DNA of 62,356 bases, filler included. It is 10 parts of 10 records of this genome, joined end to end, with 100 filler letters (N's around TTAATTAATTAA, not from the genome) between each part and the next. Parts side by side here need not be neighbours in the genome. Positions count along the whole stretch, not along the records: positions 11,596 to 22,927 come from SRR7504441_3375; 9 more parts are not named here. One strand, 5' to 3'. Shown in pieces: positions 7,794-59,312 of this stretch (position 1 is the stretch's first letter; each line of letters opens with the position of its first letter). The translations under genes and the position numbers were made by a program. The notes beneath the pieces were generated by a model. That model was not told the DNA's origin. It saw only the letters and a program-made list of their open reading frames with translations, and searched no databases.

Positions 7794-7893
7794 NNNNNNN
7801 NNNNNNNNNNNNNNNNNNNNNNNNNNNNNNNNNNNNNTTAATTAATTAANNNNNNNNNNNNNNNNNNNNNNNNNNNNNNNNNNNNNNNNNNNN
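7794..7893. other. Artificial contig linker (N44-TTAATTAATTAA-N44). Identical linkers at 11496-11595, 22928-23027, 26978-27077, 39001-39100, 43706-43805, 47515-47614, 50792-50891 and 59190-59289
   Basis: 100-nt N spacer with a six-frame stop palindrome, repeated nine times. Confidence 0.99.
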
Positions 7894-11495: not shown

Positions 11496-11880
11496 NNNNN
11501 NNNNNNNNNNNNNNNNNNNNNNNNNNNNNNNNNNNNNNNTTAATTAATTAANNNNNNNNNNNNNNNNNNNNNNNNNNNNNNNNNNNNNNNNNNNNTCCGT
11601 TGGCTATGTGGCAATCCGTGTATTCTTATTGGGAAGGTCAATGCAGATCATGAATCACGATCACGAGTGACCCGCCGCCGATCCACCGCCACGGCCGCCA
11701 CCACGTGACCACGCCCCTTGCCCATGGACGCAGACAAACCGTCATTACTCGAGTGCTCGACCATGTAACATTACAGCCATGCACGGCATCCGAAAAGAGG
11801 CTCCATTACGAGTATATACGTATACGTACGAGCATGACGTTGTCCAGATTTAACAGTACTAGTCAAGAATAGATCAAAAG

Positions 11881-12564
11881 CTATTGAGCGCTCCACAACA
11901 ACCGGTCAAATGCCCTCATCCGCACCCACTCGGGCCCGTATCGCAACTCGTCCCCCAGCCGCCCGAGCCCCGCCTCGGCAAGCTCCGGGCGCGCGCCTTC
12001 GTACCCCTCCCGCCACACCCGGCAGTACTCGCCATACGCCACCCCGGCCGCCAGACCCAGCGCCAGCCGCACTTTCGAGTCGAAGATCGGTACCGGCAGT
12101 CCGAGCATGTTCATGATCTTGCTCGCGGCCGATGGGTTCCGCCGGCCCAGCTCGGTGTGCATCACCTCGGTCAGACGCTCCACCAGCGCCAGCGCGGCCC
12201 CGGTGCATGGCTCGGCCTGAACCAGACCATCGATCTCCCCCAGATTCGCGCCGATGAACAGGGCAACCGGCCTGAGCTTGGCCTCGGCGGTGCCAGCCGA
12301 GAGGCCTGGAAAGCACCGGCTAACCCCGTAGGCACAGATGAACTGGTACAGCCCTGCGGCGCACCCGGCAGGGCCCTGGGTTGCGGACTGCCGGAGCCGC
12401 AGTGCGAGGCTCCGGTCCATGGCGATGAAGTGATCTTGGTAGCTGAGCATCGCTGCCCGGACTGCCTCGGGGCTCGCCGTTCGCGCCACCCGCCGCCGCT
12501 TGGGCTTGCGCGCTGTGCCCGTGGCCCCGGCGGGCGCTCGCTTGCCTGGTGGTGTGGAAGGCAT
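11881..12564 (-). CDS. Intronless bacterial-like alpha-helical (OGG/HhH DNA-glycosylase-fold) protein with an N-terminal NLS-like segment
   Basis: Pattern SAASKIMNMLGLPVPIFDSKVRLAL...YGEY...W...MRAFDRLLW; N-terminal RKPKRRR. Confidence 0.55.
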   Translation of the reverse strand: MPSTPPGKRAPAGATGTARKPKRRRVARTASPEAVRAAMLSYQDHFIAMDRSLALRLRQSATQGPAGCAAGLYQFICAYGVSRCFPGLSAGTAEAKLRPVALFIGANLGEIDGLVQAEPCTGAALALVERLTEVMHTELGRRNPSAASKIMNMLGLPVPIFDSKVRLALGLAAGVAYGEYCRVWREGYEGARPELAEAGLGRLGDELRYGPEWVRMRAFDRLLWSAQ

Positions 12565-12785
12565 GCGCCTGGAGCGGTCACCTGGACGTCAGCCGTTGTG
12601 CCGTTGTGAGCCGGGAGCGCGGCTGCAAGCTATGCCGCCTATGCGGGCCGCGCTGGCGATGGGGGCGTGGCCGGTCTGCTGTTCTGGACGCCCTGGCCCG
12701 CTGGTTGGTGTCTCTCGACACCCCAGTCCTCATAGCGCGTGGGCCGCAGCCTAGGGACCGTAATGTTTCAGTGTGCGATGCCGCC

Positions 12786-15650
12786 ATGCCGCCACGGGCC
12801 GATGAGGCCGAGGTGAAGAACTCGACCTCGAAATAGACGTCCAGCCCAGGGGCCGTCGGCACGCTCGGGTTGTCGATCAGCCGGAACTCCTTGGTCTGCG
12901 CGGCGGCTCGCGAGCGGCTGGGCGCAGGGCTGCACCTTGGGATGGCTGATCCGGATCCGGTGGGGAACCGAGTCCTGGTTTGTGACCGCTGGAACTGAGC
13001 GCCAGCCGGAGCGGGTGGTAGGTGGAATTCAATGGGAGCAAATTGGGCGAGTTCCAGGTACTGGCGCAACTCGAATTGGAACACCAGGAGGACAGAGCGC
13101 TCGAAATATCCGGTACTGTGGTCGAGCAGACGGTAGATGGCTGCGAGGCGGGGCTGATTCTGGCTGGCAGTGCGGGTAAGAAATCGAAACCCTGAACTGG
13201 CAATGAGCTACAAGATTGCCAAGGTGGCCAACTTCCGAATCGATCCCAAAGAAGGCACACTAGAACCTCTTGGTTCCAGGACGTTTGCAGTGACATACTA
13301 TCCTCAGCAGCTTGGCTCTTGTCACAATCGGTTAAATTTCATATTTGAGGGTGGAGCGCTGAAAGTGCCTCTGAAGGTCCAAGGGCACTGCATCCCAGAG
13401 ACCCATGCAGCCGGAACCACTCGGCGGGTGGTTGACCCCAAGCGCGTGGTGGCTGGCATTGACAAGACTGACGTAGATTTCAAACGCGAGCTCGACATTG
13501 TGCCGTCTGATTCAATTCCACTCAAGAACAAGAAGTTCAACTACCCAAACCCAGCACATCTGCAGACTTTATTCCTCCCAAGATTGAAATGCAGCCCAGT
13601 GAGCTGGATCTTGGCTGTCTCGCTGTTGGCGCAAGACACGAGTTCACATTTAATATTAAAAACACTGGCAAAGCTAACACCATCTTCCATCTGCAAGCCT
13701 CGTCTTCATTGTTGGATTTGAAGACAACGAAAGGCCTGATTCGGCCTGGTGCAAAGGCTGAAATCAATGGAACAGTGAAGCTGCTCGACACCAGTGTCAT
13801 AGACGAACAGGTCACAATCTTGCTCAGAGGAAGCAAGCCTGTCGTACTCAAAGTTACCGCGGAAGGTGCCCTTCCAAAAGTTGCTTTCGAGGAGGCTGAG
13901 TTTGATCTTGGCGATGTCACTGTTGGAGACTCTCATTATCTGCCCAAGACCACCATCGAATTCACAGGCCGGCTTGGCGAGCCGATTGTCAAGTCAATCG
14001 AGCTATCCAACTCATCAGCCTCACCAATACGCTACTCAGCTCGGTTGGACGGTTCTTCAGATTTCAGGCTCTTGCATGACGAAGTTCAGATCGAACCCAA
14101 GAGCAAGTTCCCCTGCACAATTGAGTTTGTGGGTAAGTTTTCACAAGAAGTCCAAGCTGAACTCTTCCTGATTCCGACGGCGTTTCTGCACCACCAAAGC
14201 CTGCAGAGAATGTCACGCTCCAGTGTAAGAAGGGCACTACTGCTAACAAGGAGATCACTATGCCCGTATTGAATCCTCAGAGGGAGGCAGCTTTAGCCTA
14301 CTTAAGCCAGCTCCAACTGAGCTCGATCAGATTCAATGCGAGATTGGTAAGCAGAGCTCTGTCAAATTTACCCAAGGCCACCTTGCCATACTCAAGTGCC
14401 GTGTAGGAGACAACGAAGTTCGTGCCCACTGATCCATAAGGCTCTAGCAAACCACTCCGCAGTCGTCCGCTCACGGCTCTTCTGCTGCGTCTCTGGTTGC
14501 AGATGTTTCACGGCTTTTTCTGCTTCCTTGGCGTCGAGCTGACATTGCTTGGTCAACAAGGAGAAGATGCAGTCAGTTTTGTATGGGTTTGCAATCGAAA
14601 TCATCTGAGTCACCGGCTCGTATGTGCATGACTCAATCGAGTAGTGCTGGCTCGGTTTGATCTCTGAGATTGATGATTTCAAATTGAAAACCAACGGCGA
14701 TCCAACTGCTCCACCGTCACGTTCGAACAAGCACTGTGAATTCACCGGCGGTTTCATCCATGAGCTGCAATTCACATTGAAAGAGACCTGGTGAGAATGG
14801 CAAGAAGGTAAGTTCAACGTCGACGCTGCTTGCAGCCTTGATAGGAATCTCAACCTGCTGGATGTGGAAAAATTCAGATATTGCTTCGTCTGGTAAGAAT
14901 TCTAGAGGCTCTTCCTTTTTCGAGGCCTTTCTCTTGCCTTTCTTCTTCTCGTCTGCCGATGGCTGGGGCTGAGAAGAGATTCGTAGGTTTAAACCTAATC
15001 GGAATCTGGATTGTTTGATGCTCAAACAGCTGCAATTGCTTGGTACCAGTTGACGAGCCCCCCATTAGTCTAAACGACTCACTTGTGCTATCCACCGCCT
15101 CCAATGAGACTGTTACATTTACTTTATGCTCAAATGGGTTGCGCAGGACCACAGGGTCGGAGACCTCCCGTCCCAGAGGTGCATAGAACATTGTCGATGC
15201 CATCTGCGTCGGAGGTTGTCCAACGCCACAGAGCGCAAATTCCCAGTCTGCCACCTTGGGATGCCGCAGCACTAAATTGGACTTCTGTTGCTGGTCCACT
15301 GTGGATGCAGTGTAAACTACTTCTAAGTCAAGTCGAGCATACGGTCCCATCACCAGTGGGCTGTCTTCGACAAGCACAAAGTTAGTGGGATTTGAATTGG
15401 TGCTGCGCAGCGTGATACTTTCACCAATTGGGTTTTCGATGGTAGGCTCGTCATCCTCACGGATGATATGCAATGGACGTACGAGGTTCGAGGCACACTG
15501 CCTCAATACCACGTTCCTGAGGGATTTGTCAAAGTAGCCACACATCTCTCGGACGAAGTGGAAGGGGAACTAACTAGGATCCATACTAGGCATCCGAAAA
15601 ATCACTTAAAAGATCAAGCAAAGCGGCCTCTCAAGCGAGGTGGCCGATGA
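12786..15650 (+). other. CFAP47: Scrambled/rearranged CFAP47-like locus: about 13 coding blocks on both strands, out of order, with internal parts missing
   Basis: CFAP47-like peptides: RIRISHPK|TKEFRL..APGLDV (-), ISGTVVEQT, KVANFRIDPKEG..PQQLG, ILLRGSKPV, YLPKTTIEF, STNSNPTNF (-), FLPFSPG (-), YTALEYGK (-) and LVILTDDMQWTYEVRG. Confidence 0.85.
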
Positions 15651-15883
15651 GCGTTTGCCAAAAAAAATAATCCACTTCGAGACCAACTTAGTAGCACTAA
15701 TAAACTCATTCTAAGATTCCCAATTTGGCAATTTATCACGACGTGGCGACTTCGGGATCGGACCATATAGAACAACGTCCACGCGTCTGCACTGATACTG
15801 TGTTATTACTGTGTTAATTAAAATTATCACCTATCACCTATATAATTAGAGAATTATCACCTATCACGGATCACGTGCTGACT

Positions 15884-18548
15884 CTACGCCGACTCTGCCA
15901 AAGTCAGAACAACGTCGATGTCGTACTTGCTTATGACTCCTGTCAGTGCAACCCGCGCAGATGTGCAAGTTTTTGCAACCTCCTTTTTGACCTCATCTGA
16001 TTGAGCATGTTGTAAAAGTTTAGCCTCAGCCTCATCGATGCTCGTATTAATTGTTGCCACACACATTGGGAACCAACGAAGCATTTTGCCCAGATCCGAG
16101 ACACACACTGCCACCATCTTGTTGAGGTTGTCATTTATCTTGGCAATCGCCAGCTGGAGTTTTGCATTCACCGCCGGCCCTTTCTCTTTCTTTTTGGGGG
16201 CATTCAAGAAAGCTATGGCTAGTGCAGACAGACCAGAGCTGACTGTGGCAGAGACCGCGCCAAATGCATTGGCAGACTTCATTAGCAGCAGCAGAATGCC
16301 CACCAGTATGGTGATTGCAGCAAGCAGCGACACCAAAGCGCCAACAATTGTCCACGTTGAGTATCCATTGTCGGACAGTGATTTACCGAGTGCATGTTCG
16401 AATGCAGATCTGACCAGAAGCACACTCTTCTGGATCTTTGTAGTCTTGAACCGCTTGAACTCCGCAATAGCGATCGCCCCATCACCGTTCACATCAAATT
16501 CTGCCCACTCATCGTCATCAACTGGTCCCATCTTCTTCTCGAACTCATCACGCTGCAGCAGTGCTCCATCAGCGCTAGCATCGCCCACCTTCGAGAACTC
16601 TGGGAGCATCTGAGTGTGCAAGGCGTCTCCCATTTTTTCGGTGGCACCAAGCAATCTTAAGCCTACTAGCTGTGACATGAGGTTGTCGTGTATCGTGTCC
16701 ATCAGCACCTGAGAACACAGCGGTCATGGCTTGTTAGGACACGAGGGCACCCGGTGATGGGAGACTTGCTGTTTGACGTTAGCCACGACGCTGCTGACCC
16801 TCATAAAGTTGGTGTACACAGCATATATGGTCGCGGTGATTGCCGTGAAGCTGAACATGTTGGTGAAGAAGTGCAGAACTAGACCCATCGCAGCGGACAG
16901 CAAGAAGCAAGCAGCGATTACCATGGTTAGCCAGGCCTGCCAACCAGTCAGCAGTGGCGACCGGTAGCGAAGTCACATGGAGAAGGAGGATGTCGCTGCA
17001 TACTCGAAACTTGATGAAGATAAGTACAAATAGCCGGTTGCGAGTGATCAGATGTAATCCAGGGATCAGCATGCCATCGAATTCAGTTCCAACATAGTGT
17101 ATCGCGAGGCAGCCCATTAGTAATATATATAATTTGTAGTTGAGGAGGACGGAAAAGTGGAAGAGCGAGTACAGCGCGTCTGATGCGAATAGCCCAAAGC
17201 TCATTCCATTCGTGCCAAACAGAAATAGCCCATTGATGAACTGAATATGCAAAAGTTGAAGAGCAGCCATCGTTGTCACAGTGAGCACGAACACGTGGAT
17301 CAGAACATTTTGTGTGCGAGAGAGCAGTTGGTCTGACATGAGTTGTGTGTCGGAGATGCTCGAGCCAGCAGTGCTCGAAGAAATCATGTGCAATATGCCC
17401 TGCTCCTCCTTGATCCGGCTCATCAGCTCATTATCGATCTCCGCTTTGAGCTGTGCAATGTCGCTGTGCTCAGTCAGCCGGCCTGGCTGCTCAAACTTGC
17501 GGGCCATGAGCTCATCGTACCACTCGCTGTGTTTTGAATCGTGAAGGAACAGGCCTTGCAGCACGTAGTTGTTGAGGTGCTCTCTGTAGCCGCGCTCAAG
17601 CGCCATTTGCAGCATAAAGGTGAATACAGTGGCCAGCAGCAGCACTGTTATGGCCACAAGCACCAGCAAGGACCGGATCTTCCGCTCGAGGTAGCTCAGC
17701 GGCTTCTCGACTAGTGAGAATTCTCCGTGCATGTCCACCTTCAACTTCCAACACCGCGATCGTCCAGCATTCGTGTACATAAAGAACCCATCTTTGAGCA
17801 CCCCGGTCTTCCGAGACTCCAGATCAAACTGCGAGCCGATCAGCTGGCCGAGGCAGGCGGTCATGTCTCCGCCCTGGCCTGGCTTCTGGGAGCACTCTGG
17901 AGAGCCAGCTTCAAGCTCCGACTCAAACGGTGCGCTTACCCAGACCGGGTCCAGAATCGAGCCCGAGATGGCATGCAGCAGCGCGGTGGGAAGCGTGGCG
18001 TACAGTACGCCGTGCGACCAAATCCACTGGCCTTGCTCTCCCCCAAACCAGCGCGTGTCCTTTGAGAAGACCAGGAAAGCGAGGTCTGGCAGTACTGGCG
18101 GCGACTGGCCCTCCTTATCCGCCGCAGCCGCCGGCGCGAAGGCGGTTTTGAAGCTGGTTACTCGATTGAGGTGCCGGGAGGCTCCGAGGTGGTCGAACTC
18201 CCGTCCCGAGTCTGCCCGGCCGAACAGGGCGTAACGGTGCAGCCCGCCCAGCACCGCCATCCCGAGCGCCAGCACCAACGCCGCCTGGAACAGGGCACAT
18301 ACCCGCCGCAGAAGCAGCGCCCGGCGCGCCCGGCTGGCCGACTCATCGGAGGGGGCGGGGCCAGCGCCGGCGAGCTCGGGGCCAGCGCCGGCGAGCTCGA
18401 TGGCGGTAGTCCCTGGTGGCGACTGGAGGGGCCGCTGCTCCTCGAACTGGAACGGCGACTCGGGTGGGCTGTCCATCGTGCCGTACGAGGGCTGCTCACT
18501 CCTCATGGCGGCCTGGACCGCCTTGCGCGCCGACTCGGTGCCTGCCAT
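15884..18548 (-). CDS. Multi-pass membrane protein with an EF-hand pair, about 2 introns
   Basis: ORFs 16779-18713 and 15884-16708 join through short introns. Many hydrophobic helices and the EF-hand loop DVNGDGAIAIAEF. Likely start MAGTES at 18548. Confidence 0.65.
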
Positions 18549-18625
18549 GGTCGCCTGCAGTTGCCAGCATAACGGCTTGTTCGGTGTCGCCTGTCGGAGG
18601 GCGGCGAACGGTTGCTGGGGCTGGG

Positions 18626-21264
18626 ATGAAGGCGGTGGTGGTGGGAGACCGCCAGACTGGTGGGTCTGCCCGCTCGGCGCCGCTGACCGGTCCGCAGGCA
18701 AGAGCACGCTCATCCGCAGGCTCGCCGGGGCTGAGGGCTCGAAAACCGAGTGCGGTGCGCGCCTGCGACTGGCTTCCCGCCGAACGGGCGGCAGGCCGTG
18801 CCGAGGTCACGCCAATGTCGCTCGGGGATGCTGGCGCGGCCAGCTCTGTGCGTGGCCTGGCCTCGCCGCCCTGCGAGCGACGGTAGGTGCACCTGTGGGA
18901 GTTCGCAGTCGACTCACCGCCTGAGCTGTACGCCGATGCCGAGCTAGCGCTGCTAGTGTACGACGTGACCAGCATGGGCTCGTTCGAACTGGCCACCACC
19001 ACAGCCATCGCGCGCCTCGGCGGGTGGCAGCTGCGGCCTCGCCGCTGGGGAGCCCGGGGGTACAGGCCTAAGTCTGTGCTGCTGGTGGGGCTGAAGAGCG
19101 ACCAGGCCGCCAACCGGGCAGTGACAATCGCGCAAGCGCACACGTGGGCGGTGTCGAACCGGTGCGGCCCTGCTCGACGGACCGGTCTGAGAGGGTGCAG
19201 CGTGCGGCTGGTGGAGGTGTCGGCGCACTCTGGGCAAAACCTCGATCAACTGCACCGTCTCGTGGCACTGAGCCACGCCGCCAGCGCGAGGGACACTGCG
19301 CACAAGCAGCCTGCAGTGCAGCCGAGCGCTAACAAGATCCAGCTCCCGATCTTCATGCAATCGCTCGGCGGTAACCAGTCCACCTCGGGTGTCCCCACGT
19401 CACAGCCGGCGCCGAGCCTCGCGACAGGTCAGCACGAGCAGGAGTGGTCTGCCGTTGAAGCCACGGCTGCCTCGTCTTCATTTGCGTGAGTGCTATTGCT
19501 AGTGCAAGCCCACCGAGCTTGGCCGCTGCAGGATGGTGGACGACAAGACGACCATGGAGTACCTGGACGCGCTGTGCGGGATCCCGAAGGCCCAAGCCTC
19601 GATCCGAGTCGCAGCCCAGCGATCTCAGCGGTCACCTACCCAGTCCTGGGCCACGTCAAGTTGGGTCGGAGAATCGGATCAGCTCTGGTCGCAACTGGCT
19701 CCCCCGTCCCAGCAGCTCAGCCTCAGTCCGAGGTTAGTGTTGTTGCGGTCACTCAGCAAGCAGGGGAACAGGCCGCAGACAACCCGCAACTACGAGCATG
19801 CGGCGAGCTTCGGCCTGGAGATAGCGAGTGCCATGCCTGAGACGCCCCCGCCGGAGTTCAAGGTGCTGCCGCTGGCCGCTGAGTCTGGCTCACAGCCGGT
19901 GTGCCAGGCCGAAGTATCAGCAAGCTCCTCATCAAAGCAGTCGCTGCAGAGGCACTGGGGCCCGGCCACTGCGCGACCAGGCCAGCACTCCGGTGGTTGA
20001 CTCTCTATGGCTGCAGCCTGACCAAGCTGCAGGCAAGAGCAGGAAGGTCGAGTCGCACGTGGCAGCCAGCTCACCGGGGCTGCCGCCCACAGTCAACGGC
20101 GACCTGCAGGTTCGCTATGCACGATCAGCTGCACCTGATGTGTGTGTCAGAGGCTGATTGGCCTCTCTGGCATGCCAGTGGTCACCCAGTCTAAACGGGT
20201 GATTCTGCATTTGGAGCTGGACATAGGGGACGGGCGAGTGGAAAGGATCGATGTAAGAGAGGGCGACAAGCCTGCTGTGAGCTCGCCGGCCTGTGTGGGC
20301 TTGACTGGCATCCGATAGGTGCTGGCGGAGGCATTCGTGCAGCTGCACGCACTAGCTCCGGCCATCATCCCTCGGCTGGCATCGTTCATAGATCAGCGCA
20401 CTGCAGCGGTCGCTTGAATCGCTGCAACTAGCTGTTGACCGCGTGGAGGTCAGGTCCAACAGGAGAGCAGTGCCAGTGCTAGCAGCAGCAAACCCCGGCC
20501 GCACACGAGCCGGGCGCCATCGGCACCCCGTACACACAAGTCGCCGCGGCGATCCGTCCAGCCGTTCCGGCTGGAGACGAGTCAGCGAGCAGAGGGCAGC
20601 AGAAGGCAGCCGCTCTGTCATTGTTGCTGGCCAACGAGTGTTTTCAGGTCTGCTATAGCACTCCTGAAATTACATATCCAGATCAGCCACGGTAGATCTG
20701 GCACAATTATTGTCCGCAAGGTGCTTTGGCCAGTGTTTCCAAGCTCCTAAGCTGTTTGGCTGTCCCAGGGCGACGACCCAAAGCAGCTCGCGCAGGCGTT
20801 TGTAGACACATTCAAATTGAACCATTCAATGGTCAGAACGATCTACGAGAAGATCAACGAGCAACTCAAGCTGCTCCAGCCGGTGTCCGCAGCACCACCC
20901 GCTAGGCCCTCATCTGTGCTGCAGAAAGTCCAGCTGCCAAAGCTCGATTTATCGCAGCTCGAGCCCAAACAGCCTGCGTCCAGCTCAGTGAACCTGTCTC
21001 CCATCACACCAAAGCCTCTGCGCGAGATCCTGTTCAATCTTGATATCGACCTCGGGGCTCAAGGCGCAGGCCGGCTGGTGGTGAGGCGAGGGGACAATCC
21101 GGGTGCGTGCTCACACCGACCGGTCTTGAACGGTTGCGGTGTGTGCAGAGGCTTTGGCGCAGGCGTTTGTACAGCAGCACAACCTGCACCCGGACGTGAA
21201 ATCTAAACTCACCCAGCTCATAACTGAGCACACTGACACCATGGCCGCATCAACACCGCGCTAG
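18626..21264 (+). CDS. Divergent Ras/Rab-like GTPase domain + long low-complexity linker + two C-terminal repeated domains, multi-intron
   Basis: MKAVVVGDRQT|GKST P-loop split by an intron, then VHLWE, LLVYDVTS, LLVGLKSD and VEVSA. Two repeats of the form IIVRK|GDDPKQLAQAFV and LVVRRGDNP|EALAQAFV. Confidence 0.7.
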
Positions 21265-21638
21265 ACATTAGCTAGATACGTATTCGTTTGTACTACATAT
21301 ATGTCTTAAACTGACCAAAGTCACCAAACTATACTGATGTACGAAATCCGGTACATGTACAATAACTGTAACAAACACGATGATCCCGCAGCGTACATGT
21401 ACGCCATCACCAGCTGGCGCTCGGTCGGAGTCCACTTGTGTTTGCCACCTACCAGCCGGCCATCTGCTTGCCCGGCAGTAGCCCGGCAGGCGGCTCACCA
21501 TTGAATAGTGACCGCTCCATTAGAGCCGCCCCGGGCCCTCGGTCAGTGAAGAGGTCTCGCGCAGTCACATAGGTCTAATTTTGGTCGCACTCGTCTCCGG
21601 GGCTGCAAGGAGGGCGCTGCTGCACAGTGCACTGCGTG

Positions 21639-22120
21639 ATGGCGCCGAAGAAGGACAAGGGGGAGGAGGAGGAGGAGGAAGTGTGGCGGCCGTTTGCGAA
21701 CGACCCCGACATGATGCTCAGAGAGCCGGTGCAGGTCGCCTCGACCCCCCGGGGCCCCCGGCGACCGGCGGGGCCAGATGGGGTTCAAGACCATCCAAGC
21801 CGTGGCCAGCGCACACGCCACCGCCTGGCAGAACCACGCCAACGCCCAGGGCGAGATCGACTTCGACGCCAAGGGCCAGCAGATCGTCTCCGACATCCGC
21901 AAGGCCCCCCGCCCCCCCGGGGTCGGCGCGAGCTGTCGACAGGCGCTGGAGGAACAGTTTGAACCGACTTGGCACGTGGTGGCCGGCCGGAACTACGGGA
22001 CCGCCGTGACTTACCAGTCCAATCAGTTTCTCTACTTTTCGAAGCACCAGGTTGGCCGCCAGCGCTGTCCGGCCCGACCGGGCGGGCCAGATTCACTTTT
22101 TGGTTATGAAGACGGTGTGA
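21639..22120 (+). CDS. Dynein light chain LC8-family protein, 3 introns (one GC-AG, 21904-21942)
   Basis: SDIRK|ALEEQFEPTWHVVAGRNYGTAVTY...FLYF...|IHFLVMKTV*. Confidence 0.85.
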
Positions 22121-22414
22121 GGGGGGCGGGCGGCGGCGGCGCAGTCTTGGGCTGGTGGCGGCGCGGCGGATCGAGCTCTCGCGACAACCAGTCGCCGGGC
22201 TCCGGGGAAGTGGGTCGATGATTAGAGCTTCGGCTAGGGCAAAGAGAGCGTTGTTAGTTCGAAACGCTCTTTTGCGAGCGTTCAATAATGGGCACATCTA
22301 GATGGCCTGGACAAACACTGGTATTTAAATAATGTACACAACTTATCAGCCCGTCGTAGCAAGCAGAATGCAGTCTACCCAAAGCCTTTGTCAGGCTACT
22401 GTACGTACTTGACT

Positions 22415-22893
22415 TCATCGGGCAGGCAGGTCGTCGAAGTATGCGTGCTCGAGCCCCTGCTGGGCCGTGACCCTGCGAGCGGGCTCGTACTTGATCATCT
22501 GAGTCAGCAGGTCCAGTCCGACCGGATCCAGACCTAACGGAGCCAAGCTCTGGCCCTGGCAACTACTGAGTGCCTCGCCACGCTGCGCACAAAGCTGGTC
22601 ACATGCGGAAGGCTCTGCCGCACCTTGAACGAAGGCGTCTCTATGATGGAGGGCCAGCTGTCGCGGGTCGGGGTGCCGAGTATCTGGGTCGGCCGCTCAG
22701 TCAGCCGGCTCTGGCTTCCAAGGCACCCGGACAATCTTGTGCAGCTGGTCCTTGTCTGAGCTACCTGGGAACAGCGGCTGGCCGGTGGTCATCTCGGCGA
22801 AGATGCAGCCGCAGCTCCAGAGGTCGAGCGGGGTCGAGTATCTAGTCGACTCCATCAGCACCTCCGGCGCCCGGTACCACAAGGTGACCACCT
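22415..22893 (-). CDS. Cyclin-dependent kinase, C-terminal half (5'-truncated by the contig end)
   Basis: [34 protein letters not shown] and [13 protein letters not shown]; stop at 22415-22417. Confidence 0.92.
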
Positions 22894-23403
22894 GGCACGG
22901 CTCCCCCCCCCCCCCCCCCCCCCCCCCNNNNNNNNNNNNNNNNNNNNNNNNNNNNNNNNNNNNNNNNNNNNTTAATTAATTAANNNNNNNNNNNNNNNNN
23001 NNNNNNNNNNNNNNNNNNNNNNNNNNNACTGTTCTGCACAGTGTTCCTATAGCCACATCAATTTCTGCCAAATGCAGTCTGTGGGCTGCATCCAGCTCAC
23101 CCATTAATCAGCAGAACTGTGGTTTGGGGGTCTAAAGCCCATGATCACAAGGTGTGAGCAAGAGCACAGGGCCAATGCCACGATGCCAACGCCACCCGCT
23201 CTTTGTTCATAACGAAATCCCGTGCCGCGGCCTCTCGCCTGATGGGCAGTGCAGTGCCGATGCTAGCCGTGCTGTGCCTGATGGTCGCGCAATGCTCTCC
23301 ACATTGTGTACGACGACCGTTGTGAAGGCCAAGGGCACGCTGAATCAGTGCGCTGATGGCCTTGAATCCTATGGCGGCTTGCAGCGGCTGAGCCTCCGGC
23401 CCA

Positions 23404-26881: not shown

Positions 26882-27172
26882 CAACTGGTTAAATGTAAAC
26901 TACAGTGATTCTCGAGACTAAATTAGTGACTGGAATTAAATACCTTCTTAAAATTACATACAAGTGCGCATGTGTTANNNNNNNNNNNNNNNNNNNNNNN
27001 NNNNNNNNNNNNNNNNNNNNNTTAATTAATTAANNNNNNNNNNNNNNNNNNNNNNNNNNNNNNNNNNNNNNNNNNNNGCACCGACAGCGCTGCCGGCCGT
27101 GGGGACAAGGCATCCCAACGAGCTGGCAGTGTCGGTTGGCGTGCCGGTTTAGAAGTGGCGACTGTGCCTCGG

Positions 27173-38919: not shown

Positions 38920-39128
38920 CAAGATCTGGCGCCTAACGGCAACTCAGGCTCGGTTGGGATGCCTTGCGTACACGGCCGGCAGCGCTACCAGTGCAAGGAG
39001 NNNNNNNNNNNNNNNNNNNNNNNNNNNNNNNNNNNNNNNNNNNNTTAATTAATTAANNNNNNNNNNNNNNNNNNNNNNNNNNNNNNNNNNNNNNNNNNNN
39101 ATTGAATTCCGTTCTCGTGTTCAGGGGC

Positions 39129-43276: not shown

Positions 43277-43805
43277 ATGGGGTGCCTGCGAGAGGGATGG
43301 TTCTGTGGATAGCTCGGCTTTGACGCTAGTGAGTGTCGGTGTTTGGGGGTGAATCATTGCCCGATTTAATAGTAAGTTAATCTATGAAACCCGCATAAAC
43401 TTGTTCTGCTTTCTTACATAGAGTAGCCTTTATCGATAAACTGTAATTTTAAAAGGGATTTTAATTGAAGATAAATTGAAGACCGGTCACGAGTAAGCTT
43501 ACATGGCGTGCCTTCGATGGAAACCATATTGCAGACAGATCAAAATACAGAATACTTGTACCGTCGGGCTACGTGGTCCAGCGTGCTATTATCCGCTGCA
43601 CGTGCGTGCTCTTCGCATAGATCCGGTCCCAGAAGCCACGCACACGCCGTGTCCCACCCCGCGACCTCCCCGCAGGCTGGGCAGCGCCATCTCGTCCCCC
43701 CCCCCNNNNNNNNNNNNNNNNNNNNNNNNNNNNNNNNNNNNNNNNNNNNTTAATTAATTAANNNNNNNNNNNNNNNNNNNNNNNNNNNNNNNNNNNNNNN
43801 NNNNN

Positions 43806-47392: not shown

Positions 47393-47614
47393 CGAACTTG
47401 GCGAGCCCACACCCAACGGTGATTTGCTGACCTGATCACCCCTCATGATGATGATCATGAGTGGGGCCGGCGAGCTGTAGACTCCGTAGACTAGTGGACC
47501 GACCTACTGACCTANNNNNNNNNNNNNNNNNNNNNNNNNNNNNNNNNNNNNNNNNNNNTTAATTAATTAANNNNNNNNNNNNNNNNNNNNNNNNNNNNNN
47601 NNNNNNNNNNNNNN

Positions 47615-50791: not shown

Positions 50792-51032
50792 NNNNNNNNN
50801 NNNNNNNNNNNNNNNNNNNNNNNNNNNNNNNNNNNTTAATTAATTAANNNNNNNNNNNNNNNNNNNNNNNNNNNNNNNNNNNNNNNNNNNNGTCAATGAG
50901 AATAAAACCCCCTCAAATGTAGAATTTAGCTTGGGGTCAGTCCGTTATGATCATTATATGATCATGATACACTGATGATTTTGGTTGACAGTCAGCCGTC
51001 CGTCGAGCTGATATCTATTTAATATACAGCAG

Positions 51033-59076: not shown

Positions 59077-59312
59077 AAGACATATTTCAGAGTGACGCAT
59101 AATTTCAGTTTACTAGATTATTCGTTAGATTAATCGACGGTTTAATCGCAGATTCATCGCTAGATTATGTCCCATTTAAAAGGATCGTTNNNNNNNNNNN
59201 NNNNNNNNNNNNNNNNNNNNNNNNNNNNNNNNNTTAATTAATTAANNNNNNNNNNNNNNNNNNNNNNNNNNNNNNNNNNNNNNNNNNNNATTGAGGTGGA
59301 GCCTCGTGGTGG

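Follow-up and report, generated by a model that had tools for sequence, protein, structure and literature searches.

Colour-sidedness in cattle reportedly goes back to a translocation via circular DNA intermediates, a case that is ascribed to Durkin and co-workers in 2012. In human segmental duplications a flip in segment order together with end-joining scars has been described as the signature of such intermediates, and the same source, in the part drawn on here, names chromoanasynthesis (PMC7450558). A different kind of precedent comes from the marine alga Emiliania huxleyi CCMP1516, whose dynein heavy-chain loci are described, in the part of the account drawn on here, as 'short segments' with large deletions, rearrangements and inversions that were confirmed by polymerase chain reaction, with other strains keeping complete dynein heavy-chain genes (PMC4438323). 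Here we describe a 62,356-nucleotide (nt) stretch of DNA (the window) in which positions 13022-15717 consist of 11 intron-free pieces of one CFAP47-like gene, lying on both strands and meeting at 10 non-native joints. An initial annotation of the sequence had pointed out the excision, circular permutation and reinsertion of an internal segment, and it turns out to be part of this much larger patchwork.

The window is made up of ten contigs of ~3-12 kb joined by nine artificial spacers (N44-TTAATTAATTAA-N44), across which no feature is to be read. The patchwork sits in the contig at 11596-22927, which also carries ordinary eukaryotic open frames.

Results and Discussion

The pieces meet in the window at joints that the native gene lacks (Table 1). 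A search with piece F led to one longer relative, P0001 (1790 amino acids (aa), 79% identity over the matched part), and P0001 as query returned eight proteins including itself, P0002, P0003 and P0008. The last of these is CFAP47 by its NCBI name and matches P0001 with an E value of 1.7e-122, and P0003 is a near full-length relative of 2723 aa onto which all 11 pieces map by tblastn. An array of ASH/PapD-like Ig domains is present, with Ig_CFAP65_4th, ASH and HYDIN/CFA65/VesB-like Ig found on pieces B and C-E. The Pfam CFAP47 domain (PF24529), which spans aa 1296-1450 of P0003 with 98 bits, gave no match in any window piece and falls into the missing aa 867-1593, and the calponin-homology (CH) domain, located at aa 1482-1587 of P0003 and thus within the same missing part, gave no match in the window pieces either. 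As the stretch with the CFAP47 domain is missing from the window, what the window holds is the remnant of an ortholog of CFAP47-domain proteins and not the domain-bearing gene. About 2.6 of ~8.2 kb of coding sequence is retained (~32%) and 68% is absent from the contig; the pieces measure 69-464 nt, and stops or frameshifts were found in none of them. In our view what is left at this locus is the dead remnant of a CFAP47-like flagellar gene without introns, which is a dispensable kind of gene that can be lost.

Table 1: Pieces of the CFAP47-like gene in window order, followed by other features of the window. Amino acid positions are those of P0003 unless stated otherwise; eight of the ten joints between pieces keep the strand and two switch it.
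Feature	Position	Strand	Match and remarks
Piece A	13022-13169	+	aa 80-117 over 13022-13135; N-terminal Ig/ASH region; 55% identity, E 1.6e-6
Piece B	13170-13550	+	aa 269-388, E 1e-26; Pfam Ig_CFAP65_4th, ASH; ~150 aa missing before, ~350 aa missing after
Piece C-E	13551-13933	+	aa 740-866; P0002 aa 12-147; Pfam HYDIN/CFA65/VesB-like Ig 2.4e-12; joint with F within ~3 nt of 13933/13934; ~727 aa missing after, CFAP47 and CH domains among them
Piece F	13934-14175	+	P0003 aa 1594-1674; P0001 aa 655-735, 79% identity, gapless; ends with first two bases of a Pro codon
Piece G	14176-14303	+	P0003 aa 1836-1875; P0001 aa 907-~945; end set by start of H; ~394 aa missing after
Piece H	14304-14372	+	aa 2270-2291; native continuation is M
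Piece J	14373-14460	-	aa 2631-2659; native continuation is N
Piece L	14461-14725	-	P0003 aa 1675-1760; P0001 aa 736-~823; first half of moved 517-nt unit
Piece K	14726-14976	-	P0003 aa ~1761-1835; P0001 aa ~824-906; second half of moved unit
Piece M	14977-15440	-	P0003 aa 2292-2443; P0001 aa 1354-1508; 67% identity, gapless
Piece N	15441-15717	+	aa 2660 to stop (ends 15650), 3' untranslated region, AATAAA 15699-15704, poly(A) site ~15717
Inverted block J, L, K, M	14373-15440		joints 14372/15440 and 14373/15441, opposite strands
EF-hand gene	15884-16723	-	convergent with the patchwork gene
675-aa open frame	16779-18806	-	
Artificial spacers	7794-7893, 11496-11595, 22928-23027, 26978-27077, 39001-39100, 43706-43805, 47515-47614, 50792-50891, 59190-59289		sole long repeats of the window

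Exact breakpoints were obtained at seven joints. The start of piece B is set by contigs and its end, taken from the ortholog alignment, is accurate to about +/-5 nt. A possible eleventh joint lies at 12809/12810, where X4 record 3 (167 nt) is exact over 12810-12952 and then continues with 24 letters that differ. It may be that the gene did not naturally lie downstream of the GC-rich left flank (11596-12809), which would mean either an eleventh joint or natural variation.

The normal form of the gene can be read from environmental contigs. The run search listed 23 runs, all of them marine or aquatic community samples, with part of the stretch in 20 and half of its words in none, and eight contigs from four of these runs were compared with the window (X1 and X2, which are RNA, and X4 and X7, which are labelled 'DNA?' only). 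X1 record 1, a 1644-nt metatranscriptome contig with one differing letter in 898 aligned bases, consists in turn of 159 unknown nt, H, M, a stretch of 564 nt that the window lacks (called y in the following), J, N and a tail of 22 A. It connects 14304-14372 directly to 15440..14977 and 14460..14373 directly to 15441 onward, and its tail starts after 15717, with AATAAA ending 13 nt before the poly(A) site. X2 record 2 runs from native sequence into J and then N. After 15698 this contig has 11 letters that do not match the window, either as a variant 3' end or as a contig-end error. X7 record 8 parts from the window at 14977, and its further letters encode what follows M in the orthologs. X7 record 7 covers 14505-14676 of piece L with two differing letters, and X4 record 4 and X7 record 6 both diverge before 13170, with the same 30 letters of native coding continuation past the divergence, which makes the joint after A (13169/13170) non-native.

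Altogether six of the eight contigs reach a piece boundary and each of the six diverges there, the remaining two lying inside single pieces. As all contigs that reach a boundary depart from the window, the normal gene is collinear and expressed, and it is intron-free where RNA contigs align and near-identical to the pieces. The contigs show directly that H-M and J-N are native neighbours and that 14373-15440 is inverted. Between M and J (joint 14460 to 14977) a rotated K-L piece stands in place of y, and the initial annotation was therefore right to suggest that the moved piece replaced a missing segment between J and M, as the native mRNA has 564 other nt there. The species thus has a complete polyadenylated copy of the gene while the window has short near-identical segments of it.

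The joints of the moved unit were taken from the window itself. F/G reads ...CTGATTCC/GACGGCGTT at 14175/14176 on the plus strand and K/L reads ...GTGCTTGTT/CGAACGTGAC at 14726/14725 on the minus strand, letter for letter as annotated. In P0001, P0002 and P0003, mapped onto the window by tblastn, the order is always F-L-K-G, and joining the four pieces by coordinates in this order gives an open frame of 295 aa, of which residues 1-293 align with P0001 at 62% identity (E 3e-119). The alignment is gapless at F/L (aa 80.7) and K/G (aa 253), so that swapping the partners of the two joints does restore the frame as had been claimed. Gaps are confined to aa 157-195, a variable Lys-rich linker around the L/K join (aa 169) that differs in length among the orthologs themselves, and of the gap-free alignment predicted for three joins the first two were obtained and L/K is uninformative. 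The frame closes only with a unit of 517 nt, the length proposed at the outset, which includes the T at 14977 that is common to K and M; with 516 nt (14461-14976) three stops appear. A small correction concerns the end of L, which had been placed ~3 nt off, as the GCG read as Ala belongs to J (starting at 14460). The scrambling of F-L-K-G is thus confirmed and lies far beyond chance.

From the orthologs and the restored frame, not from reads, F-L and K-G appear to be the native adjacencies in the source species. The data support F/G as the putative empty donor site and K/L as the putative joint of the donor's two ends, and the geometry suggested for these two joints holds. As in relocation through a circular intermediate, the order is flipped from L-K to K-L and the two ends of the donor are fused at 14726/14725. 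The microhomology amounts to 0 nt at F/G, K/L and L/J, 1 nt at M/K and 3 nt at the inversion.

Are these joints 'homology-free', as had been stated? This is correct for F/G and K/L, and the reinsertion is different, as the last 8 nt of L (14468..14461) read GGACGACT and the native y starts with the same eight bases (seen at the end of an X7 contig). Compared by eye, L/K and M/y match at 15 of 18 positions with one gap, the first bases of K included, and the place where L-K would have been opened and the place where it landed resemble each other. The shared 8-mer of L end and y start would account for the opening point as well as for the target. In the whole window GGACGACT occurs three times with 2.04 occurrences expected. 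The end of M (...ACGAATCT, 14977-14987) also resembles the 8-mer at the L end (14461-14468, minus strand). Because of this resemblance the native M/y border holds a short near-tandem motif.

Five native adjacencies (F/L, L/K, K/G, H/M and J/N) have both of their sides in the window within 0-3 nt, and no native base is present twice in the patchwork. Keeping both sides of a breakpoint with no base duplicated points to whole fragments that were cut and put together again; a polymerase that halts and resumes elsewhere would not leave both sides. We tentatively prefer the view, without calling it probable, that the DNA of the source was really broken and rejoined by way of a circular or unit-length intermediate. 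This view is also favoured by the small overlaps at the joints, by a right flank that is genomic, by a gene of a kind that can be lost, and by the precedents of eroded flagellar loci and of circular intermediates cited above. In such a model the 517-bp L-K segment would first have been excised at two blunt breaks, with the flanks sealed as F/G and the ends of the segment fused as K/L to give a small circle or an equivalent unit-length template. This unit would then have entered the same gene ~2 kb downstream at the M/y boundary, and the 8-base match fits such an entry, be it by annealing, by a single crossover at the match or by one copying round of the circle, any of which would give the K-L order; the rest of y (~556 nt) would have been lost. 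Later on an inversion of the block M-K-L-J would have taken place across a 3-nt inverted match at the two ends (ACC at 14370-14372, GGT at 15441-15443), and five more internal deletions would have removed most of the remaining gene. The circle model is plausible and the idea of a circularized segment, as first proposed, is partly strengthened by the 8-base match, but a plain inversion of 14176-14725 would have F/G and K/L as its exact ends too, and a circle is thus one path among others.

If the joints are real, the locus works like relocation via a circular DNA intermediate inside a gene that is being dismantled. Like the cases in the part of PMC7450558 considered here it would combine an order flip (A-B/C-D to B-A/D-C) and fused donor ends with blunt or short-microhomology scars, and its insertion would be compatible with end-joining as well as with microhomology-guided copying. 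It differs in scale, with 517 bp here and tens to hundreds of kb there, and in that the move takes place in cis within one gene and the donor site is empty instead of duplicated. Also unlike those cases, a 564-nt segment has given way to the insert, the entry point is marked by a short match and the block was then inverted. Here both reciprocal products lie 550 bp apart on one molecule and donor, fused-ends joint and target are found within 800 bp; the circle is a putative one, no physical circle having been seen. With E. huxleyi CCMP1516 the locus shares a very large flagellar gene cut to short near-identical segments and complete expressed copies elsewhere in the species, and in contrast to the portion of that account used here, which gives no base-level joints, the joints are available at base level (PMC4438323).

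Several points weigh against breakage and rejoining in the source DNA. None of the eight contigs spans a non-native joint (F/G and K/L lie in stretches without contig cover, which include 13320-14255 and 14677-14976), and the claim of 'real breakage and ligation' is in this sense not shown, as no sequence outside the assembly carries any non-native joint. The contigs come from four of the 23 runs, none of which is known as the source, and contigs drop rare variants. With ten joints inside 2.7 kb and hardly a base changed relative to the wild gene, the burst would have to be very recent, and an artefact would look the same. From A to H the six pieces follow one another in native order and on the native strand, which one random shattering would not produce. 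The entry of the unit requires an extra loss of 9-10 nt at M/K and of 556 nt beside the insert, and the 8-base match comes from one contig with a depth of 2.1. The assembly is fragmented (ten contigs of 3-12 kb), and GC at third codon positions (GC3) differs widely between its contigs, from 0.49 to 0.83, a spread that could come from heterogeneity within the genome or from a mixed bin. The shuffling may go back to the cell or to the laboratory.

It is quite possible that the organism has only the collinear gene and that the patchwork was made in the tube, by whole-genome amplification or fragment ligation, or by an assembler or scaffolder. The departure of all six boundary-reaching contigs, with no support for any non-native joint, agrees with this, as does the wild gene, which is polyadenylated, unbroken and almost the same in sequence. 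The assembly is in many fragments, the sizes of the pieces resemble reads or unitigs, and the five ordered same-strand 'deletions' from A to H have the look of small contigs that were scaffolded with gaps closed to zero. Moreover, assemblies from amplified single-cell DNA are described as rich in misassemblies in the part of the report drawn on here (bioRxiv 10.64898/2026.06.11.730069). For chimeras formed by multiple displacement amplification (MDA) the data of Lasken and Stockwell, as far as drawn on here, give 337 inverted and 11 direct joins (97% inverted) between segments less than 10 kb apart, with proximal joins showing complementarity of 2-21 nt and at least 2 nt in more than 90% (PMC1855051), and a review gives, in the part used here, an overlap peak at 7 nt (PMC9984789).

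Against such an amplification origin, eight of the ten joints of the patchwork are direct and the strand switches at two, and from the 97% above the chance of at least eight direct joins in ten is ~4e-11 (our own arithmetic, joints assumed to be independent). The complementarity is also too short, with 0, 0, 0 and 1 nt at F/G, K/L, L/J and M/K and 3 nt at the inversion, and an 8-nt overlap is obtained only by taking L as connected with the start of y. The likeness to MDA chimeras, as these sources describe them in part, is thus limited to intramolecular joins over distances below 10 kb, to one possible 8-nt overlap and to two strand-switch joints, whereas here most joints keep the strand and lack overlap, breakpoints are used again from their other side and duplicated segments are absent. 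Template switching would not use one breakpoint from both sides five times, and fragments once free in solution would not come back to their own neighbours for ligation. Paths in a de Bruijn graph require common k-mers at the joints and there are none, and the joints are not marked by Ns. Finally, the chance of a random artefact hitting a dispensable flagellar gene is small.

Other technical or RNA-based origins were dropped. A de Bruijn misjoin was set aside as the two sides of the joints have no words in common. Splicing (exon skipping and back-splicing, copied to DNA) was rejected on borders without GT..AG and on two strand switches; it is also countered by the right flank, which is genomic, as the window passes the poly(A) site into the convergent neighbouring gene. 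A relic of the dinoflagellate spliced leader, which would be a sign of a retro-copied mRNA, gave no matches with up to 3 mismatches allowed. Restriction cutting was rejected as nine readable breakpoints have no common motif; K/G reads GTT/GAC, which is HincII-like.

A real rearrangement that needs no circle, either three nested inversions with deletions or one shattering with random re-ligation, appears unlikely to us. The signed order in the right half of the window is F G H -J -L -K -M N and the native one F L K G H M J N, and a breadth-first search over signed orders found that three inversions, the theoretical minimum, suffice to get from the native order to that of the window. F/G and K/L are the exact ends of an inversion of 14176-14725, and the joints of H with inverted J and of inverted M with N are those of an inversion of 14373-15440. 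The inversion path would however place one breakpoint to the base on the joint of the y deletion, it needs an exact removal of y, and it has no role for the 8-base (15/18) match between L/K and M/y. Shattering of the chromothripsis-like kind would suit breaks that lie in a cluster, the loss of fragments, and blunt joints with the two sides of a breakpoint retained. It differs in the kilobase scale found here, with fragments of 69-464 bp, and random re-ligation leaves unexplained why the six pieces A, B, C-E, F, G and H have native order and strand.

That the window shows a germline-like scrambled copy, unscrambled at the DNA or RNA level into the collinear expressed form, is highly improbable, although pieces from both strands meet precisely where segments would have their boundaries, the pieces are free of stops and frameshifts, and there is a collinear form in RNA (X1, X2) and probably in DNA (X4, X7); for against it stand 'pointer' repeats that were not found (0 nt common at F/L and K/G), abutting pieces with no spacer sequences between them, piece borders without visible splice-like ends, the 68% of coding sequence that is not on the contig, and neighbouring genes on the contig that are ordinary open frames. 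With the scrambled germline genes of spirotrich ciliates the common ground is permuted and inverted segments beside a collinear expressed form, and here pointers at F/L and K/G as well as eliminated spacers are lacking, most segments are absent, and composition and genetic code differ. The standard genetic code and a GC content of 48-70% are unlike those of the ciliates known to have scrambled genes. A programmed scrambled copy of a nuclear gene in a GC-rich non-ciliate marine protist, reassembled with pieces stored elsewhere, would have to work without pointer repeats or spacers, and we give hardly any credence to it.

Returning to breakage and rejoining with a circular unit, if the joints are real then the empty donor site, the fused-ends joint and the reinsertion site of a 517-bp segment are all found on one 2.7-kb stretch. 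This would be an unusually complete record of a small circular DNA re-entering a genome, with a short match that explains both its opening and its landing, and it would provide a second independent marine protist that dismantles a flagellar gene still expressed by its wild relatives. If the patchwork is an artefact, its same-strand and overlap-free joints with breakpoints reused from both sides are of a kind outside the published descriptions of amplification chimeras drawn on here, which would be relevant to curators of single-cell and draft protist assemblies.

Genomic surroundings

A repeat search of the whole window revealed no inverted duplications and nothing besides the artificial spacers, and an Rfam search of the window gave no matches. 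JGI metagenome contigs were scanned with piece M, which gave 123 pattern matches and no relatives among them. Along the contig 11596-22927 GC drops from ~70% at the 5' ends of genes to ~47-50% in their inner parts. Within genes the gradient is steep, from ~64-74% at the 5' end to ~45-52% further in (examples are 16779-18806 on the minus strand and 12810-15650 on the plus strand). Because of this gradient the stretch of low GC at 13100-17800 probably belongs to the genome itself and is not of foreign origin. GC3 is 0.49-0.57 in the CFAP47 pieces and the EF-hand and PP-binding frames, and 0.74-0.83 in the FG-GAP, 1003-aa and YidC-like frames. The value of ~0.5 for the pieces is unlike that of E. 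huxleyi.

In the GC-rich flank left of the patchwork a 235-aa open frame (11881-12588, minus strand) in DNA of 70% GC looks like a genuine protein. It matched no Pfam family and no homolog was found among 2211 candidates, which leaves this test for a chimera between organisms uninformative. On the other side of the patchwork a Ras-family frame (18887-19489, plus strand) matches its profile over positions 67-153 of 162, the C-terminal part of the domain. A P-loop-like GAADRSAGKST is found at ~18700, upstream of this frame and in a different reading frame. The Ras-family frame may thus have an intron inside, or it may be a second damaged gene.

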